Assembly: GCA_963716725.1 (NCBI GenBank)
Contig: CAVQUB010000003.1
Coordinates: 64,001-128,000, forward strand
Reading direction: 5' to 3'
From: an uncultured delta proteobacterium
Lineage (GTDB): Bacteria; Myxococcota_A; Polyangia; Polyangiales; Polyangiaceae
Length of the DNA stretch: 64,000 bases
Positions 43,437 through 47,984 of the stretch are shown here, piece after piece (position 1 is the first letter of the stretch; the number at the start of each line of letters is the position of its first letter). The position numbers and the translations under genes were made by a program. The notes under the pieces were generated by a model. It saw only the letters and a program-made list of their open reading frames with translations, was not told where the DNA came from and did not search any database.

Positions 43437-45149
43437 TCAGCGTTTCGGGCGTTCGTAGACCCAGACCACGGGGACGCCGTCGTACGCGCCCACATGCGCC
43501 GGCGCGATGGTGCCGTAGTCGACCCACAGCTGATACTCGACGCGCAGCATGTGTGGCTCGTGGTGGTAGAGCGCGAAGCTCGATCCGGCGGGGGACCACG
43601 CCGCGCGCAGATCGGCCCGCAGGCGGCCGTCTCGGACCATCTGATCCCAGCTCTGCATCGCGGTGTCGTGCACGTACACCGACGCGTTGGGCGGCGCGCG
43701 CTCGTTCAAGAAGCCCTGCACGGAGCCGGTGGTGTAGCCCCAGAACGATCGATTCAGTCCCAGGCTTGCGGCTCCCGGCGCACCGCCGACCAGGGGCGTG
43801 TAGGCGCCGAGCCCCCAGGGGTGCGAGCCGATGGCGATGGCGATGGGGGCGGCGACGGCGCTGGCGGCGAGTCCCAGCTGGGCCGCGGCGCGGGCCAACC
43901 GGCGGCGCTCGGCGAGAAAGCTCGAGAGCGCCCGGCTCACCAGCACGAAGCCCCGCGCCGCAAATAGCGCCATGAAGGGGTAGGCAGTGATCCAGTGCTT
44001 GGTGCCGCCAAAGATCGGCGTGCTCTTGGAGATCCACGGCGCGTAGCTGGTCAGGATGCAGCCAAGCCAGAGCAGCTCCGTCGAGAACAGCTCGCGGTCA
44101 GCCGGCGACGATGCGCTGGGCTCCGGGCGACCAAGGCGCTTGGCGACGGCGCGCTGCCACGCACCCAGGCGCACGACCAGGCCGCGCTTGGTGGCGTCGC
44201 CAAGGCCGATCACGAACAAGAGCAGCGTGATGGCGGGCACCGTGGCCACCGTCATGACCCAGGCGTAGCCGAGCGGCATCGGCGGCTTCCAGTAGGTCCG
44301 CCCGAGGAACTCCATGTTGTAATATTCGTGGCCCGTGTGAAACGCGACGTAGGCGGCCAGACGTTTCCCGGTGTCGTGCCAGATCCAAGGCCACAGCGCG
44401 TAGAACACCGCGGGACCGATCACCGCCATGGCGATCAGGGCGAGCGGCGCCCGCACGCGTCCCGTGCGCAGCTCCCGCCAGAACCCCCCGCCGCGAGCGA
44501 CGACGAAATGCACGATCAGCGCCGGAGGCAAGAGCCACGAGTTGTGCTTGGTGTCGAGCAAGAGTCCGTAGAGCACACCGGTTGCGATGGCCCAGAGCCA
44601 CCCGCCCCCAGAGATTGATCGCCAGTAGGCATAGGTGGTGAGCAGCCACATGGCCGCCACTGGCATGTCGAAGCAATCGAGGTGCGAGTGGTAGAAGACG
44701 CGTGGCATCATCGCGAGGGAGAGCGCCGCGACGAGTCCGGCCAAGCGCCCGCTGACGCGCCGGCCCCAGAGGTAGGTCACCGCCACGGTGACGCCCGACA
44801 GCACCATGCCGGGGAAACGGAAGCTGGTGCCTTCTTCCGCGATCAGCTTCCACTTGGTGTGCAGGAAGTGGTGCGACAGCGCGAAGAGCGACTTGACCAG
44901 CGCCGGGTGCTCGTTGTTCGCGACCCAGTAGCGATCGATGGTCGCGCGCTCGAAGGCCGCCTTCGGCGAGTCGAACAGGATCTGGAACCAGCCTTGGTAG
45001 CTGCGCGCCGCCTGGAAATAGAAGCCCTCGTCGCGGGCGTAGCCGAGATCGTGGCTCGTGCGGAGCAAGAGCCAGACGTAGCCGACGGCCAGCCCCAGCC
45101 CGATCAGGGGGTCGACGCACGCCAGAACGAAGCGGCGGGCGCGGCTCAT
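43437..45149 (-). CDS. GT-C (ArnT/PMT_2-like) membrane glycosyltransferase
   Basis: RDEGFY, EHPALVK, multiple TM segments, FDMP, TKH. Confidence 0.8.
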   Translation of the reverse strand: MSRARRFVLACVDPLIGLGLAVGYVWLLLRTSHDLGYARDEGFYFQAARSYQGWFQILFDSPKAAFERATIDRYWVANNEHPALVKSLFALSHHFLHTKWKLIAEEGTSFRFPGMVLSGVTVAVTYLWGRRVSGRLAGLVAALSLAMMPRVFYHSHLDCFDMPVAAMWLLTTYAYWRSISGGGWLWAIATGVLYGLLLDTKHNSWLLPPALIVHFVVARGGGFWRELRTGRVRAPLALIAMAVIGPAVFYALWPWIWHDTGKRLAAYVAFHTGHEYYNMEFLGRTYWKPPMPLGYAWVMTVATVPAITLLLFVIGLGDATKRGLVVRLGAWQRAVAKRLGRPEPSASSPADRELFSTELLWLGCILTSYAPWISKSTPIFGGTKHWITAYPFMALFAARGFVLVSRALSSFLAERRRLARAAAQLGLAASAVAAPIAIAIGSHPWGLGAYTPLVGGAPGAASLGLNRSFWGYTTGSVQGFLNERAPPNASVYVHDTAMQSWDQMVRDGRLRADLRAAWSPAGSSFALYHHEPHMLRVEYQLWVDYGTIAPAHVGAYDGVPVVWVYERPKR

Positions 45150-46057
45150 CGGGTGTCCGCCTGAAAGCAAAAGTGGCGATCTTTGACCACCGAGCTCCGA
45201 ACCTCGATCTCGACCTCGTGGGTCTCGCCAGCGCGACCGGTGTCGAAGCTGAAAGGCGCGAAGCCCTGCTCGTCGCGGTGCGAGTAGGTGCCGATGCTGG
45301 TCCCAGCGACGCGCACCTCGATCTCGACGGGAGGAGCGCCCACGCTGTCCCGAAACAGGAGCCAAGGAAGGCCGCCGTAGCCGCGGATCTTCTTGCCGAG
45401 GGGGACTCGCTCGAACCTCAAGCGAAGCGGCGCGCCCGGAGGTGGATGGGCCCAGATGCAGCGGCGGGGCCGGTACTCGCGGTGGTCGTCGATCACGGTC
45501 ACACCGGCGAAGAACCACTCGCCGGCCGGGCACATGAAACGCTGCGCCGGAAATGTCGGGTTGCCGCCGAGGCCGCCGGACGAGATCGCTGCGTTGGCGT
45601 TCCAAGCGCACGGCTTGGCGCCTTCGAAGACCTTTGCGTGCTCGGGCTTCAGATGGTCGACGAAGTCGAAGCTCACCGGCTCGGGCGCGGGGTTCTGCAG
45701 CGTACGCAGCCTGAAGCGGCCGTGCCTTTCCTCGCTCACGGGTCGCCAGCCCGCGAGCTCGGGCGCGCGCTCGCCCATCGCCGAGATCTCGATGGCCCGG
45801 GCGTAGCGAGTCTCGTCAGGGCGTGCGACGTCGGCGAGAGGCATCAGCGAGTCGCCGAGCGCTTGACGCGCCAGCGGATCGGCCCAACGCGGTGCGACCA
45901 CGACCAGCTCGTCGGTCTTGCGCAACGCAGCGACGGGCTCGCGCAGGCTCGCCCATTCATCGACGCCGGGCGCGCGGCGGGAGAAGTAGTAGTACGCGCC
46001 GAGCTCCGCGATGCCCGCGAGCGGCACGGCCAGCCAGAGCATGCGCCTGCGGGACAT
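45146..46057 (-). CDS. Membrane-anchored hypothetical protein co-transcribed with the GT-C gene
   Basis: N-terminal TM; RRCIWAHP; ATGA overlap. Confidence 0.7.
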   Translation of the reverse strand: MSRRRMLWLAVPLAGIAELGAYYYFSRRAPGVDEWASLREPVAALRKTDELVVVAPRWADPLARQALGDSLMPLADVARPDETRYARAIEISAMGERAPELAGWRPVSEERHGRFRLRTLQNPAPEPVSFDFVDHLKPEHAKVFEGAKPCAWNANAAISSGGLGGNPTFPAQRFMCPAGEWFFAGVTVIDDHREYRPRRCIWAHPPPGAPLRLRFERVPLGKKIRGYGGLPWLLFRDSVGAPPVEIEVRVAGTSIGTYSHRDEQGFAPFSFDTGRAGETHEVEIEVRSSVVKDRHFCFQADTR

Positions 46058-46230
46058 GGGGGCGCGAGCTTAGGTCAAAGCGGAGCGATTCTCGGCGGTG
46101 GAGTGCGGCCTGACCGCGAACTCCCACCTAGCGTGGTCAACTTTTCGACAACGCAGTGCGGCGTTTTCAGAATTGAAAGCCTGCCTTGGTACATGCCCCA
46201 CTAACTATCTGAAATCGGGTTCTTTTGGCC

Positions 46231-46246
46231 TGGCACGTCGCGTGCA
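46231..46246 (+). promoter_or_regulatory. sigma54 -24/-12 promoter
   Basis: TGGCACGTCGCGTGCA preceded by an AT-rich tract; predicts +1 near 46257. Confidence 0.7.
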
Positions 46247-46256
46247 AACTACTTCA

Positions 46257-46418
46257 ATCGGCGGCAGCGAATGGACTGCCAGACAGTTCTCTCTTCCGCC
46301 GAACACTACGCACGGTGACGCTGACGATCCCCCCCCTCCGTTAGTGGCACCGTGCTTTTCTCACCCACGGCAGTGTTGGAACGTCCCCCCCCGGTCCGAC
46401 CTGCCGTGGTTTTTTTTT
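46257..46418 (+). ncRNA. Candidate Pxr-like three-hairpin sRNA with C-rich loops
   Basis: SL1 46258-46302, SL2 46310-46355 (C8 loop), SL3 46365-46409 (C8 loop) followed by T9; no credible ORF. Confidence 0.75.
46365..46418 (+). terminator. Rho-independent terminator (SL3 of the sRNA)
   Basis: CCACGGCAG/CTGCCGTGG stem followed by T9. Confidence 0.85.
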
Positions 46419-46443
46419 GTGCGCCGTGTAGAAGTCGCGGCGC

Positions 46444-47040
46444 ATGTCTCACGCCACTGAGTTCCGCGACGAAGCCATCCAGATCCTGAACCAGCTGGAC
46501 ACCGAGGCCGTCGAGCGGCTCGCCGCGCTGGTGGTGGCGCTGCGCGCACGCGGCGGTCGGCTGTTCGTGCTCGGGGTGGGCGGGAGCGCGGCGAATGCGT
46601 CGCATGCCGTGAACGACTTTCGGAAGCTCTGCGGCATCGAGACCTACGCTCCCACGGACAACGTCTCCGAGCTCACCGCGCGCGTGAACGACGACGGATG
46701 GGAGACGACCTTCGAGCGCTGGCTGGAGGTCAGTCGACTGGGTGACAAGGACATGGTGCTGGTGTTCTCGGTGGGTGGCGGCAGCCTCGAGAAGAACGTG
46801 AGCCCCAACCTGGTGCGGGCGCTCAGCCTCGCAAAGCGCGTCGGTGCGAGCATCGGCGGCGTCGTTGGGCGTGACGGCGGGTACACGGCTCAGGTGGCGG
46901 ACGCCTGCGTGATCGTGCCGACGGTCAACCCCAAGGCGATCACGCCCCACACCGAGGCCTTTCAAGCCGTGGTGTGGCACCTGTTGGTCTCCCACCCATC
47001 CTTGCAGCTGTCGGCGACCAAATGGGAGAGCACGCGATGA
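46444..47040 (+). CDS. gmhA: Phosphoheptose isomerase-like SIS protein
   Basis: GVGGSAANASH..ND, LTARVND, FSVGG, HTEA. Confidence 0.8.
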   Translation: MSHATEFRDEAIQILNQLDTEAVERLAALVVALRARGGRLFVLGVGGSAANASHAVNDFRKLCGIETYAPTDNVSELTARVNDDGWETTFERWLEVSRLGDKDMVLVFSVGGGSLEKNVSPNLVRALSLAKRVGASIGGVVGRDGGYTAQVADACVIVPTVNPKAITPHTEAFQAVVWHLLVSHPSLQLSATKWESTR

Positions 47041-47984
47041 AGTCATTGGTCATCGGCGGCGCGGGGTTCATCGGCAGCCACTTGGTCGATCGGCTGGTGA
47101 GCCGCGGGCCCGTCACCATTTTCGACAACATGAGCGTGGGCAAGCGCGAGTTCGTGGCGGATCACCTGGCCTCGGGCGCGGCCAAGCTGGTGGTCGGCGA
47201 GCTGCTCGAGCTCGATCCGCTCTGCGACGCGGTGAAGGGCCACGACGTGGTCTTTCACCTGGCGGCAAACCCCGAGGCGCGCTGGGGTCTCGACAACCCG
47301 CGCCTCGATCTCGAGCAGGGCACCATCGCCACCTGGAACGTGCTCGAGGCCATGCGCCGAGGCGGGGTGAAGTCCCTGGTGTTCTCCTCCTCGGGCACCG
47401 TCTACGGCGACACCGCCGCCGTCTGCGCCGAGGGCGATCTCGGTGCCTTGCCCATCTCACTGTACGGCGCGGCCAAGCTCGCGGGCGAGGCGCTGATCAG
47501 CGCCTTCGTCGAGTGTTTCGGATTGCGCGGGTTGATCTACCGCTTTGGCAACGTGGTGGGTCCCCGGGGCACCCACGGCGCGGCCCTCGACTTCTTCAAG
47601 AAGCTCGAGAAGACGCCGAACGAGCTCGAGGTGCTCGGCGACGGCTCCCAAGCCAAACCCTACGTCTATGTGACCGACTGCGTGGACGGCATCTTGTTCG
47701 GCCTCGATCGCGCGGCCGGCCCCCTGGACATCTTCAACATTGCGCCGCCCGACACCACCAGCGTCAAGCGCATCGCCGAGCTCTGCGTGGCGGCCTCTCC
47801 CTTCCCGACGGCGAGCATCCGCTACACCGGCGGCGCCCGCGGCTGGCCCGGGGACGTGCCGAAGTCGCGCCTCGCCACCGACAAACTCGGCGAGCTGGGC
47901 TGGCGGGTCCCGAAGACCAGCGACGAGGCTCTACGCCTGGCGGTGACCGCGCTGTCGGCCGAGGTGTTCGGATCGCGATCGTGA
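47037..47984 (+). CDS. NAD-dependent nucleotide-sugar epimerase/dehydratase
   Basis: GGAGFIGSH, HLAA, SSS..VYG, YGAAK, RFGNVVG, W.GDV. Confidence 0.9.
   Translation: MKSLVIGGAGFIGSHLVDRLVSRGPVTIFDNMSVGKREFVADHLASGAAKLVVGELLELDPLCDAVKGHDVVFHLAANPEARWGLDNPRLDLEQGTIATWNVLEAMRRGGVKSLVFSSSGTVYGDTAAVCAEGDLGALPISLYGAAKLAGEALISAFVECFGLRGLIYRFGNVVGPRGTHGAALDFFKKLEKTPNELEVLGDGSQAKPYVYVTDCVDGILFGLDRAAGPLDIFNIAPPDTTSVKRIAELCVAASPFPTASIRYTGGARGWPGDVPKSRLATDKLGELGWRVPKTSDEALRLAVTALSAEVFGSRS

Follow-up and report, generated by a model that had tools for sequence, protein, structure and literature searches.

Introduction

Pxr, a negative regulator of fruiting-body development that also occurs as a processed short form, is the best-known small RNA (sRNA) of a multicellular bacterium. 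As set out in the cited sections of the literature, its gene lies downstream of pxrR (nla19), which encodes an NtrC-like regulator, and between pxrR and Mxan_1080, a predicted NADH dehydrogenase gene, with pxrA (Mxan_1079) immediately downstream of pxr in Myxococcus xanthus (PMC5568312, PMC5684412, PMC11928866). The same sections describe a sigma54 promoter directly upstream of Pxr (PMC5568312), three stem-loops (PMC5568312, PMC5684412, PMC8538405, PMC11928866), and a single C-to-A change in the loop of the first stem-loop (SL1) that abolishes function (PMC5568312, PMC5684412); Pxr is thought there to have arisen within Cystobacterineae (PMC5568312, PMC8538405, PMC11928866), and neither its direct targets nor its mechanism is described as known (PMC11928866). 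Here we describe an element at positions 46130-46418 of a 64-kb stretch of DNA (64,000 nucleotides of contig CAVQUB010000003.1 from an uncultured delta proteobacterium; hereafter the window, whose positions are used throughout). The element belongs to a new RNA family of a known kind, which is Pxr-like in its control and design and is not a member of RF01812, the Rfam family of Pxr. It is very probably a real structured RNA gene and, with only slightly less assurance, an sRNA gene driven by sigma54; that it answers to the same type of activator as Pxr is somewhat better than an even bet.

Several other described systems share parts of this design. The C-rich-loop sRNAs 6C, RoxS/RsaE and CcsR act by pairing with G-rich Shine-Dalgarno (SD) regions; 6C is reported to pair with G-rich mRNA sites and is not known to have a sigma54 promoter. 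The seed of the Qrr sRNAs lies in a single-stranded 5' region. RNAs that act as protein sponges include CsrB/RsmZ for CsrA and CrcZ for Hfq/Crc, with CsrA binding GGA and Hfq binding A/U-rich RNA. The bodies of sRNAs diverge fast. The family described here is absent from Rfam 15 in scans of the window and of 16 family loci, and the open-access literature yielded no account of sRNAs from Sorangium or Polyangiaceae, and none that places Pxr outside Cystobacterineae.

RNA structure and covariation

A sequence-only reading of the window had proposed a sigma54-driven sRNA with three hairpins, and on re-reading the sequence all of its elements were present at 46130-46418. The predicted sRNA is ~162 nt long (46257-46418, + strand), its start taken from promoter geometry and its end from a T9 run. 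SL1 (46258-46302) has an outer stem CGGCGG/CCGCCG and a variable interior. SL2 (46310-46355) is a canonical C-loop unit with the loop AUCCCCCCCCUC at 46327-46338, and SL3 (46365-46409) is a variant of that unit, with C8 at 46385-46392 and without UCC, that would also serve as the terminator stem. One C8 run is present in the loop of SL2 and one in that of SL3. The T9 run (46410-46418), kept as T8-T9 in the genus, would be the U-tail. By inspection, SL3 with its 17-pair stem followed by nine T is presumed to be an intrinsic terminator. A simple terminator scan of 45800-46800 returned no terminator-like sites and left SL3 and T9 unflagged, presumably because the stem is bulged and the loop long.

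The + strand RNA folded into three hairpins exactly as described, at -77.1 kcal/mol, with a shuffle mean of -48.1 (standard deviation 4.1), z = -7.04 and none of 200 dinucleotide shuffles as good; the reverse strand gave z = -1.71, with 12 of 200 shuffles as good. The asymmetry is consistent with the argument, made earlier from G-U pairs in the stems, that the structure exists at the RNA level. By blastn the element is present once in the window's own genome (G000; other G numbers denote related genomes and L numbers loci) and at 85-89% identity in four of six same-genus genomes, and 54 further relatives gave just two short, chance-level matches. Each of the five genus copies lies upstream of the same SIS-domain gene and keeps the promoter, the upstream block and both C-run loops. 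Their RNA alignment has 92% mean column identity and compensatory change in three of 49 pairs, and its one-base indels in the loops argue against coding.

Two covariance models were built, R1 of the whole RNA and R2 of the hairpin unit. R1 matched 24 of 151 genomes of the same taxonomic family, representing 16 of 89 genera, several of the genomes having 2-4 loci. The matched loci follow a common design of a sigma54-type promoter, usually SL1, and then 1 to 6 hairpin units per gene. The unit is 54 nt long and forms a 13-pair hairpin with the base CACRGCG/CGCYGUG and an apical loop C5-10(UCC), many units being followed by a U-run. In family loci the SL1 outer stem reads GGYGG-YAG/CUR-CYGCC. Among 18 rows that represent several genera, 17 retain this stem with G-C/G-U/A-U changes, four reverse-strand or secondary rows having been dropped before the count.

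A structure-blind MAFFT alignment of 39 units showed compensatory change at all 13 predicted pairs, with 94.7% of cells paired and 95 compensatory cells versus 22.7 +/- 7.0 in shuffles. When 71 units from 36 loci were aligned with R2, 96.4% of cells were paired and 178 were compensatory, versus 41.6 +/- 8.6 after shuffling (0 of 500 shuffles reached 178) and 13-35 when partners were slid by 1-3 columns; this alignment is fitted to R2 and hence leans towards the structure, and the MAFFT alignment agrees with it. One reverse-strand artefact row (alignment A4) was retained among the 71 units. A covariance model had been suggested by the sequence-only reading, and covariation among the units is strong. 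SL2 and SL3 sat in the R2 seed alignment, so their R2 scores (53.5 and 47.9 bits) match by construction; independent members outside the seed are G000:C33, at 47.3 bits, and loci from the wider genome searches. G-U pairs are frequent, with 12 at one pair of the 71-unit alignment, and their abundance fits an RNA of the + strand. The C-run of the unit loops is 5-10 long (mode 7) and is followed by UCC in 44 of 71 loops, and stem sequences are conserved beyond pairing, with CACRGCG at the base and GACG/CGUC closing the loop.

It is very improbable that the element is no RNA gene but an inverted repeat of the DNA, a repetitive element or a structure arising by chance in GC-rich sequence. Covariation alone cannot separate DNA palindromes from RNA hairpins, and contigs of two metatranscriptome runs, described below, showed no transcript. 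Against this explanation stand the strand-asymmetric folding and abundant G-U pairs, the promoter at a fixed distance with U-tails downstream, and the low copy number, G000 having three units in 7.9 Mb, all of them behind sigma54 promoters.

Distribution

The RNA family is modular and occurs in Polyangiaceae and some other Polyangiales. Of the three R2 units in G000, two are in the window and the third forms a second sRNA gene (L040, C33:2168-2248, - strand), a single hairpin (unit 2168-2221) with the loop UUCCCCCCCCUCC and a U-tail. L040 has the promoter TGGCGC-N5-TTGCT, with a palindrome, TTTCAGAGTTGCAC, 56 nt upstream of it, and has orthologues in congeners (e.g. G001:C26:24138). R2 matched 18 of 41 relatives (14 of 24 within the family, five of six within the genus) and nine of 151 genomes of a phylum-wide sample, one of which (G178) looks like a coding false positive. 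All five large single-contig complete family genomes (G075, G140, G115, G099 and G138) were matched, mostly with one-hairpin genes in several copies and in one case with a tandem array, and one copy is kept in a family genome of 1.8 Mb (G032).

The tandem array, G138:C1:9574070-9577581 (L029/L121/L126), has at least nine unit hits, equal to at least six whole sRNA genes, with a period of ~385 nt. Every gene of the array is preceded by a promoter of its own and contains both an SL1, whose loop is C8-11, and a terminator hairpin, whose loop is C9-10; the C-runs vary in length among copies. At three loci from two genera (L018, L019 and L035) a conserved element, TATTGTAGTGTCACTGCAAT, was seen ~90-130 nt downstream of the sRNA terminator; at L019 and L035 the other flank holds a K+ transporter (K_trans) gene that is divergent from the sRNA.

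Across 185,579 species, each represented by a single genome, an exact-pattern scan returned 29 loci. The canonical hairpin is formed at 18 of these; 17 of them match the promoter, and the remaining one (L067) has the palindrome alone. The other 11, from assorted phyla, had no fold and no promoter and were rejected as chance matches. The taxon labels of the 18 canonical loci are Polyangiaceae (9), Myxococcales (2), delta proteobacterium (5) and (P/p)roteobacter* (2), and on these labels the family is taken as Polyangiaceae. A myxobacterial lineage outside Cystobacterineae, which had been proposed from the window sequence, agrees with these labels of the matching public records. The window stretch itself was found in wastewater, biofilter, sediment and groundwater metagenomes.

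Promoter, enhancer and candidate activator

The promoter was compared with the sigma54 -24/-12 consensus, with which the window's TGGCACGTCGCGTGCA (46231-46246, + strand) agrees except at one position. From its GG at 46232-33 and GC at 46244-45 transcription is expected to start near 46257, one base before SL1, and the motif is kept as TGGCAY-N5-RTGC in all five genus sequences. An enhancer-like palindrome, TTTCAGAATTGAAA (46165-46178, + strand), starts 66 nt upstream of the promoter. Further upstream, ~22 nt from the palindrome, a box near-invariant in the five same-genus sequences, CAACTTTTCGACAACGCAGTGCGGCG (46138-46164, + strand), is possibly a second, degenerate half-site for the activator. 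Between enhancer and promoter lies TAACTATCTGAAAT (46202-46215, + strand), whose AAC and GAAA are invariant in the genus and which may be a DNA-bending (IHF-like) site.

Among 39 family loci, totals that include L030 (G135) and L046 (G178), by inspection probable coding false positives, the -24/-12 motif was found upstream in 36, in 23 of them 25-29 nt before the start of the RNA model. The palindrome TT(T/G)CA-N4-6-TG(C/A)A(A/C) stands at a fixed 56-68 nt before the promoter in 21 of the 39. Genome-wide, G000 has 33 palindromes and 1898 loose promoter matches, which form three palindrome and promoter pairs versus about one expected by chance; two of the three are the two sRNA loci. Promoter motif, fold and the conservation of both are all consistent with the sigma54-promoted structured RNA gene that had been proposed, the promoter being recognised as a motif.

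For comparison, pxr loci were fetched from metagenome contigs with the published probe sequence, giving 15 loci of which 12 are genuine; L090, L100 and L101 were rejected as coding chance hits. In all 12 genuine loci, from which the enhancer motif was defined, the same palindrome occurs two or three times, at 91-148 nt before the promoter. Ten also have a box, CAAGTGCYTGAGA, which precedes the promoter by 41 nt in nine of them and by 31 nt in the tenth; the window's TAACTATCTGAAAT resembles this box. Among family loci, L014 and L033 read TTTCAGATCTGAAAG and GTCAAGTGCCTGACG. Each of the 12 also has a C7 run in the SL1 loop. The sequence-only reading had credited Pxr with C-rich loops in all three stem-loops, and this was not so: in the genuine pxr loci the C-run loop is found in SL1 alone. 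Tandem pxr paralogues, each with its own palindromes, were observed on two metagenome contigs (L094 and L096), in agreement with the literature on Cystobacter; L094 has three RF01812 hits of 91, 76 and 44 bits, the last one cut off.

When the DNA-binding end of PxrR, taken from the pxr loci, was compared with G000, the best match was the activator C2:45530-46960 at 49.3 bits, the runner-up scoring 37.7. This protein has receiver, Sigma54_activat and HTH_8 domains, and its recognition helix is TTLWRKMTRL, that of PxrR being TTLWRKMKRL. The leader of its gene (G000:C2, L102:4410-4530; L129-L131) has a conserved CGGGGCGG 15-20 nt before the GTG start in four congeners. When 2264 start regions were scored for their pairing with the SL2 loop, this leader ranked fourth; as a weak lead, the sRNA could feed back on its own activator.

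Proposed mechanism

In the explanation that we consider the best, with a probability of roughly 55% for the whole, the element is an independent, trans-acting sRNA gene under PxrR-type and sigma54 control with anti-SD loops. An NtrC-type enhancer-binding protein, for which the PxrR-like response regulator G000:C2:45530-46960 is the candidate, would bind the palindrome at 46165-46178, the candidate target sequence being TTTCAGATCTGCAA, and would switch on sigma54 RNA polymerase at 46231-46246. Transcription would start near 46257 and stop at the SL3-U9 terminator to give an RNA of ~162 nt, whose C5-10(UCC) loops would be seeds that pair with the G-rich SD regions (GGAGGGGG...) of mRNAs and block translation. 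Taken by itself, the anti-SD base-pairing has about an even chance of being right.

The observations that weigh against this explanation concern its activator and sigma factor, the link with Pxr, the adjoining SIS gene, and the targets. The PxrR-like activator is encoded on another contig and does not adjoin the sRNA. Its C-terminal domain was found in 40 of 41 relatives and units in 18 of 41, and because the activator is also present in genomes without a detectable unit, its co-occurrence is uninformative. In G230 an activator does adjoin the sRNA, and it was rejected as a link to PxrR since its helix (RRALIYKMEKY) differs. The DNA-binding domain of sigma54 (rpoN, PF04552) was not found in the G000 assembly, which is 84% complete; rpoN is present in all four congeners, and G000 has dozens of sigma54 activators.

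Relation to Pxr

RF01812, whose gathering score is 80 bits, found nothing in 45900-46600 at E <= 10, nor in any of 16 family loci at E <= 1, which counts against a direct tie to Pxr. The Rfam Pxr model had been named as a check by the sequence-only reading, and while the window has no match, the model works on real pxr loci, scoring five of five metagenomic ones at 91-127 bits. By RF01812's own definition the window RNA is thus not a Pxr. Across the whole 64-kb window no Rfam model matched at its gathering score, and in 45900-46600 the other Rfam models at E <= 10 gave chance-level hits alone (e.g. NsiR1, 15.9 bits on the terminator). In two phylum samples, of 401 and 123 genomes, the pxr probe pattern was absent even when three mismatches were allowed, and RF01812 matched none of 151 genomes; these samples are evidently without any pxr-bearing genome. 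Conversely, R2 scores just 11-15 bits on pxr, at the Pxr SL3 terminator, and this similarity was rejected as evidence of homology. The RNA bodies cannot be aligned, and any homology with Pxr at the RNA level is putative.

What the two systems have in common is a myxobacterial host, a sigma54 -24/-12 promoter, an end in an intrinsic terminator (presumed for the window RNA), the upstream palindrome TT(T/G)CA-N4-6-TG(C/A)A(A/C) with a similar intervening box, an apical loop with a C7-9 run, and tandem paralogues in some genomes of both; a PxrR-like NtrC-type activator is encoded in G000. The window gene differs in lying upstream of an SIS-epimerase pair, not pxrA, and in not adjoining an activator gene. 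Its palindrome is ~66 nt from the promoter in one clear copy, versus 91-148 nt and 2-3 copies at pxr. The window RNA has three stem-loops, and its SL1 loop is not C-rich, the C8 loops being in SL2 and SL3; C-loops of the new family are extended by UCC, and hairpin number is modular. In some family members (L018, L019, L035, L029 and L042) SL1 does have a C7-11 loop, and the family SL1 loop of L019, GGUUCCCCCCCC, is very alike that of Pxr, GGUUCCCCCCCA. The lineages also differ, Polyangiaceae here and, in the sections cited, an origin within Cystobacterineae for Pxr (PMC5568312, PMC8538405, PMC11928866).

Pxr has the same control module (palindrome, sigma54 promoter, PxrR-type activator and C-rich loop), and on that ground we regard the family as most probably its counterpart in Polyangiaceae, with an RNA body that has diverged beyond recognition by the model; the shared module makes common ancestry the likelier case. 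The Pxr-likeness proposed for the window sequence thus stands for the enhancer palindrome, which is that of all 12 pxr loci, and for the PxrR-like activator in the genome, and fails for the RF01812 match and for a position beside the activator gene. It is doubtful, though a serious alternative, that the RNA is a convergent analogue, a real sigma54-dependent C-loop sRNA that shares no ancestor with Pxr, the common palindrome being the mark of an old, conserved activator recruited independently; this concerns ancestry alone and is compatible with the base-pairing mechanism. The missing RF01812 match, the differences from pxr in palindrome spacing and copy number and in gene context, and the placing of the C-rich loop in SL2/SL3 here versus SL1 in Pxr would all suit it, as would the repeated origin of C-rich loops indicated by sub-threshold hits to 6C, ar7 and CcsR1. 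Speaking for common ancestry instead are the co-occurrence of four features (the palindrome, the similar intervening box, the sigma54 promoter and the C7-9 apical loop), the close likeness of GGUUCCCCCCCC to GGUUCCCCCCCA, and the fast divergence of sRNA bodies.

Independent gene or leader

The SIS-domain (GmhA-like) gene (46444-47040, + strand; Pfam SIS_2, E = 2.2e-7) is the conserved downstream neighbour of the sRNA and lies outside the RNA. It starts 25 nt after the T9 run on the same strand, and an SIS gene occupies this downstream, same-strand position at 12 of 48 loci, of which five belong to the genus and seven to other genera. These facts are open to a different explanation, in which the RNA is a cis-acting leader or attenuator: the sigma54 promoter would mainly drive an SIS-epimerase operon for sugar-nucleotide or polysaccharide metabolism, the hairpins would be conditional terminators and the short RNA a by-product. 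The order sRNA-SIS-epimerase is kept at the 12 loci, where the SIS orthologues of the 11 further loci are 72-87% identical and the epimerase is syntenic at ten, the other two being cut by the locus end. At three further loci glycosyltransferase or nucleotidyl-transferase genes are next on the same strand, and many units have a U-run of their own, both of which would suit a leader. For Pxr itself, the authors state that an effect of the pxr deletion's upstream position on pxrA transcript levels could not be excluded, at least in the section cited (PMC11928866).

Even so, we consider a leader decidedly unlikely. At 36 of 48 loci there is no SIS neighbour, yet the promoter, hairpin and U-tail are kept in unrelated contexts. 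In G032 the sole downstream open reading frame (ORF) with a Pfam match is on the opposite strand, as is the nearest downstream ORF at the second G000 locus. SL3 with U9 is very stable and terminator-like. In the 25-nt gap before the window's SIS gene lies a TAG-containing, -10-like box, TAGAAGT (46429-46435, + strand), a possible promoter of that gene, and a TAG box (TAGGTT, TAGAGT, TAGAAG and similar) occurs between terminator and gene, 9-29 nt before the SIS start, in all 11 syntenic loci viewed. The box suggests that the SIS operon has its own promoter and a very short leader. The possibility that the RNA acts only as a gmhA leader, named by the sequence-only reading as one of the results that would undo its proposal, is weakened by the SIS-less loci and the TAG box, and a cis role is conceivable at this orthologous locus.

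Contigs of two metatranscriptome runs also bear on the independent gene, as none covered 46257-46418, a result that is uninformative because small RNAs are often lost from contigs and standard libraries. Wastewater metatranscriptome contigs did match the SIS gene at 46706-46839 and 46843-47018 with 99-100% identity, the other matches being short, dissimilar pieces, so that either the SIS gene or contaminating DNA is represented in the RNA libraries.

The SIS gene is followed by an NAD-dependent epimerase/dehydratase gene (46974-47984, + strand; Pfam Epimerase, E = 1.1e-41), whose true start is uncertain. Upstream of the sRNA two minus-strand ORFs overlap, 43437-45611 (724 amino acids (aa), PMT_2 glycosyltransferase family) and 45146-46057 (303 aa); the latter is divergent from the sRNA and had no Pfam match, and the overlap across 43437-46057 reflects either unresolved gene boundaries or a frameshift. 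With the PMT_2 ORF, the SIS gene and the epimerase gene, the neighbourhood of the sRNA is glycan-related.

Candidate targets

For the independent sRNA, the base-pairing part of the explanation begins from the loop CCCCCCCCUCCG, which is the exact complement of CGGAGGGGGGGG, an extended SD. Perfect 12-nt complements to the SL2 loop cover the starts of a candidate hybrid histidine kinase gene and of three paralogous ORFs of 118 aa. The paralogues are three near-identical ORFs (G000:C32:306116, + strand; C32:307114, + strand; C11:376408, - strand), two of them preceded by tandem repeats of the GGGGTC/GGGTGC type, and by eye alone the protein looks like a four-helix-bundle type. They share one leader, at the end of which stand CGGAG, a run of 9, 8 or 6 G and CAUG, in that order. 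The kinase candidate, on C9 (G000:C9:269992), is a 671-aa ORF that by sequence reads as a hybrid histidine kinase, and its homologue in G001 has the same leader. A further hit, on C21, was rejected as a glycine loop inside a kinase gene.

Duplex energies of the candidates with the SL2 loop ranged from -25.6 to -33.4 kcal/mol, which places them at the far end of the values for 2264 crude background start regions (minimum -27.5) or outside these; duplexes of -29 to -33 kcal/mol lie outside altogether. The candidates were picked by motif, which makes these extremes circular. Nor was GGAGGGGGG enriched ahead of start codons: 13 of its 44 occurrences lay within 14 nt of one, as did 13 of 53 and 52 of 177 occurrences of G-rich controls and 6 of 42 of the complement. 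A search of four congeners for the motif plus a following ATG produced 13 hits, compared with five for the reversed control; most of the 13 precede short or dubious ORFs, and one precedes a homologue of the C9 kinase. The sequence-only reading had the RNA repressing GGAGG/GGGG leaders; perfect complements to such leaders do exist and are not enriched, and repression would be the presumed outcome of pairing with them.

The same loops might instead bind a protein. In that case the RNA would be a sponge, titrating an RNA-binding protein specific for the C-rich loop as presented by the hairpin, with the number of units setting the capacity. The repeated identical loops and conserved stem sequences suit a sponge too, which tells against the base-pairing explanation, and the conservation of the stems beyond pairing (the CACRGCG base and the GACG/CGUC closing the loop) is in keeping with protein recognition. 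So is the range of 1 to 6 units per gene, with whole genes in tandem at least six times in G138, and G000 encodes both an Hfq-like protein (C27:117254-117406, 33.2 bits) and CsrA (C13:260834-260989, 60.8 bits). We nevertheless think a sponge unlikely: no known bacterial protein with poly-C loop specificity was identified in this analysis, CsrA and Hfq prefer GGA and A/U-rich RNA, and many members, such as the second G000 copy and those of the large complete genomes, are single-hairpin and would make poor sponges. The loop, moreover, exactly complements an extended SD, for which base-pairing is the simpler explanation.

Comparison with other sRNAs

The 6C RNA (RF01066, Actinobacteria) resembles the new RNA in having two hairpins with loops of at least six C. 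One family member scores 35.7 bits on RF01066, below the gathering score of 47, and the window gave no RF01066 hit at E <= 10. The 6C RNA belongs to another phylum, is not known to have a sigma54 promoter, and is without the UCC extension and the modular arrays. The CcsR1-4/'cuckoo' and ar7 RNAs of Alphaproteobacteria (RF02791 and RF02342) have repeated hairpins, anti-SD-like C/U-rich loops (CCUCCUCCC) and tandem copies, and family loci produced sub-threshold hits of 35.6 bits for ar7 and 25.8 bits for CcsR1 (gathering scores 60 and 65.3); they differ in loop motif, promoter type and taxon. RoxS/RsaE of Firmicutes, compared through Rfam scans alone and with no hit, likewise have C-rich loop motifs that pair with G-rich SD regions, but are unrelated in sequence, promoter and taxon.

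In their control, Qrr1-5 (Vibrio), GlmY/Z and CrcZ are alike in using sigma54 with an NtrC-type response regulator and in being multi-copy in some genomes with a shared conserved seed. The pairing of the activator leader with the SL2 loop is a weak hint of feedback resembling that of Qrr and LuxO. Qrr shows no sequence or model similarity and no Rfam hit, and the seed of the new family lies in hairpin loops.

Significance

Apart from the Pxr question, the family would be a new Rfam entry with strong covariation support, and as it is carried by large complete family genomes, bench tests would be possible if cultivable strains exist. If the module is indeed related to Pxr, comparative target prediction could draw on dozens of divergent natural variants, ranging from 1 to 6 hairpins and from single to tandem genes; the C-run-UCC loop would point to the functional seed, and the palindrome would provide a testable enhancer motif for the PxrR activator class.

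Reviews place the origin of Pxr inside Cystobacterineae, in the section cited (PMC8538405). The findings reported here suggest that the Pxr module is older than Cystobacterineae, and a related module across Polyangiaceae, if confirmed, would mean an earlier origin of Pxr-type control. Tentatively, and with the odds somewhat against it, the window RNA may represent the ancestral, widespread form of the Pxr system, in which a PxrR-type two-component activator and sigma54 drive one or several sRNAs with C7-9(UCC) hairpin loops as extended anti-SD seeds and which predates the split of Polyangia and Myxococcia. If so, Pxr would be predicted to act by pairing of its SL1 loop with G-rich ribosome-binding sites, and hairpin and gene copy number would be a fast-evolving dosage dial, possibly with feedback on the G-rich leader of the activator.

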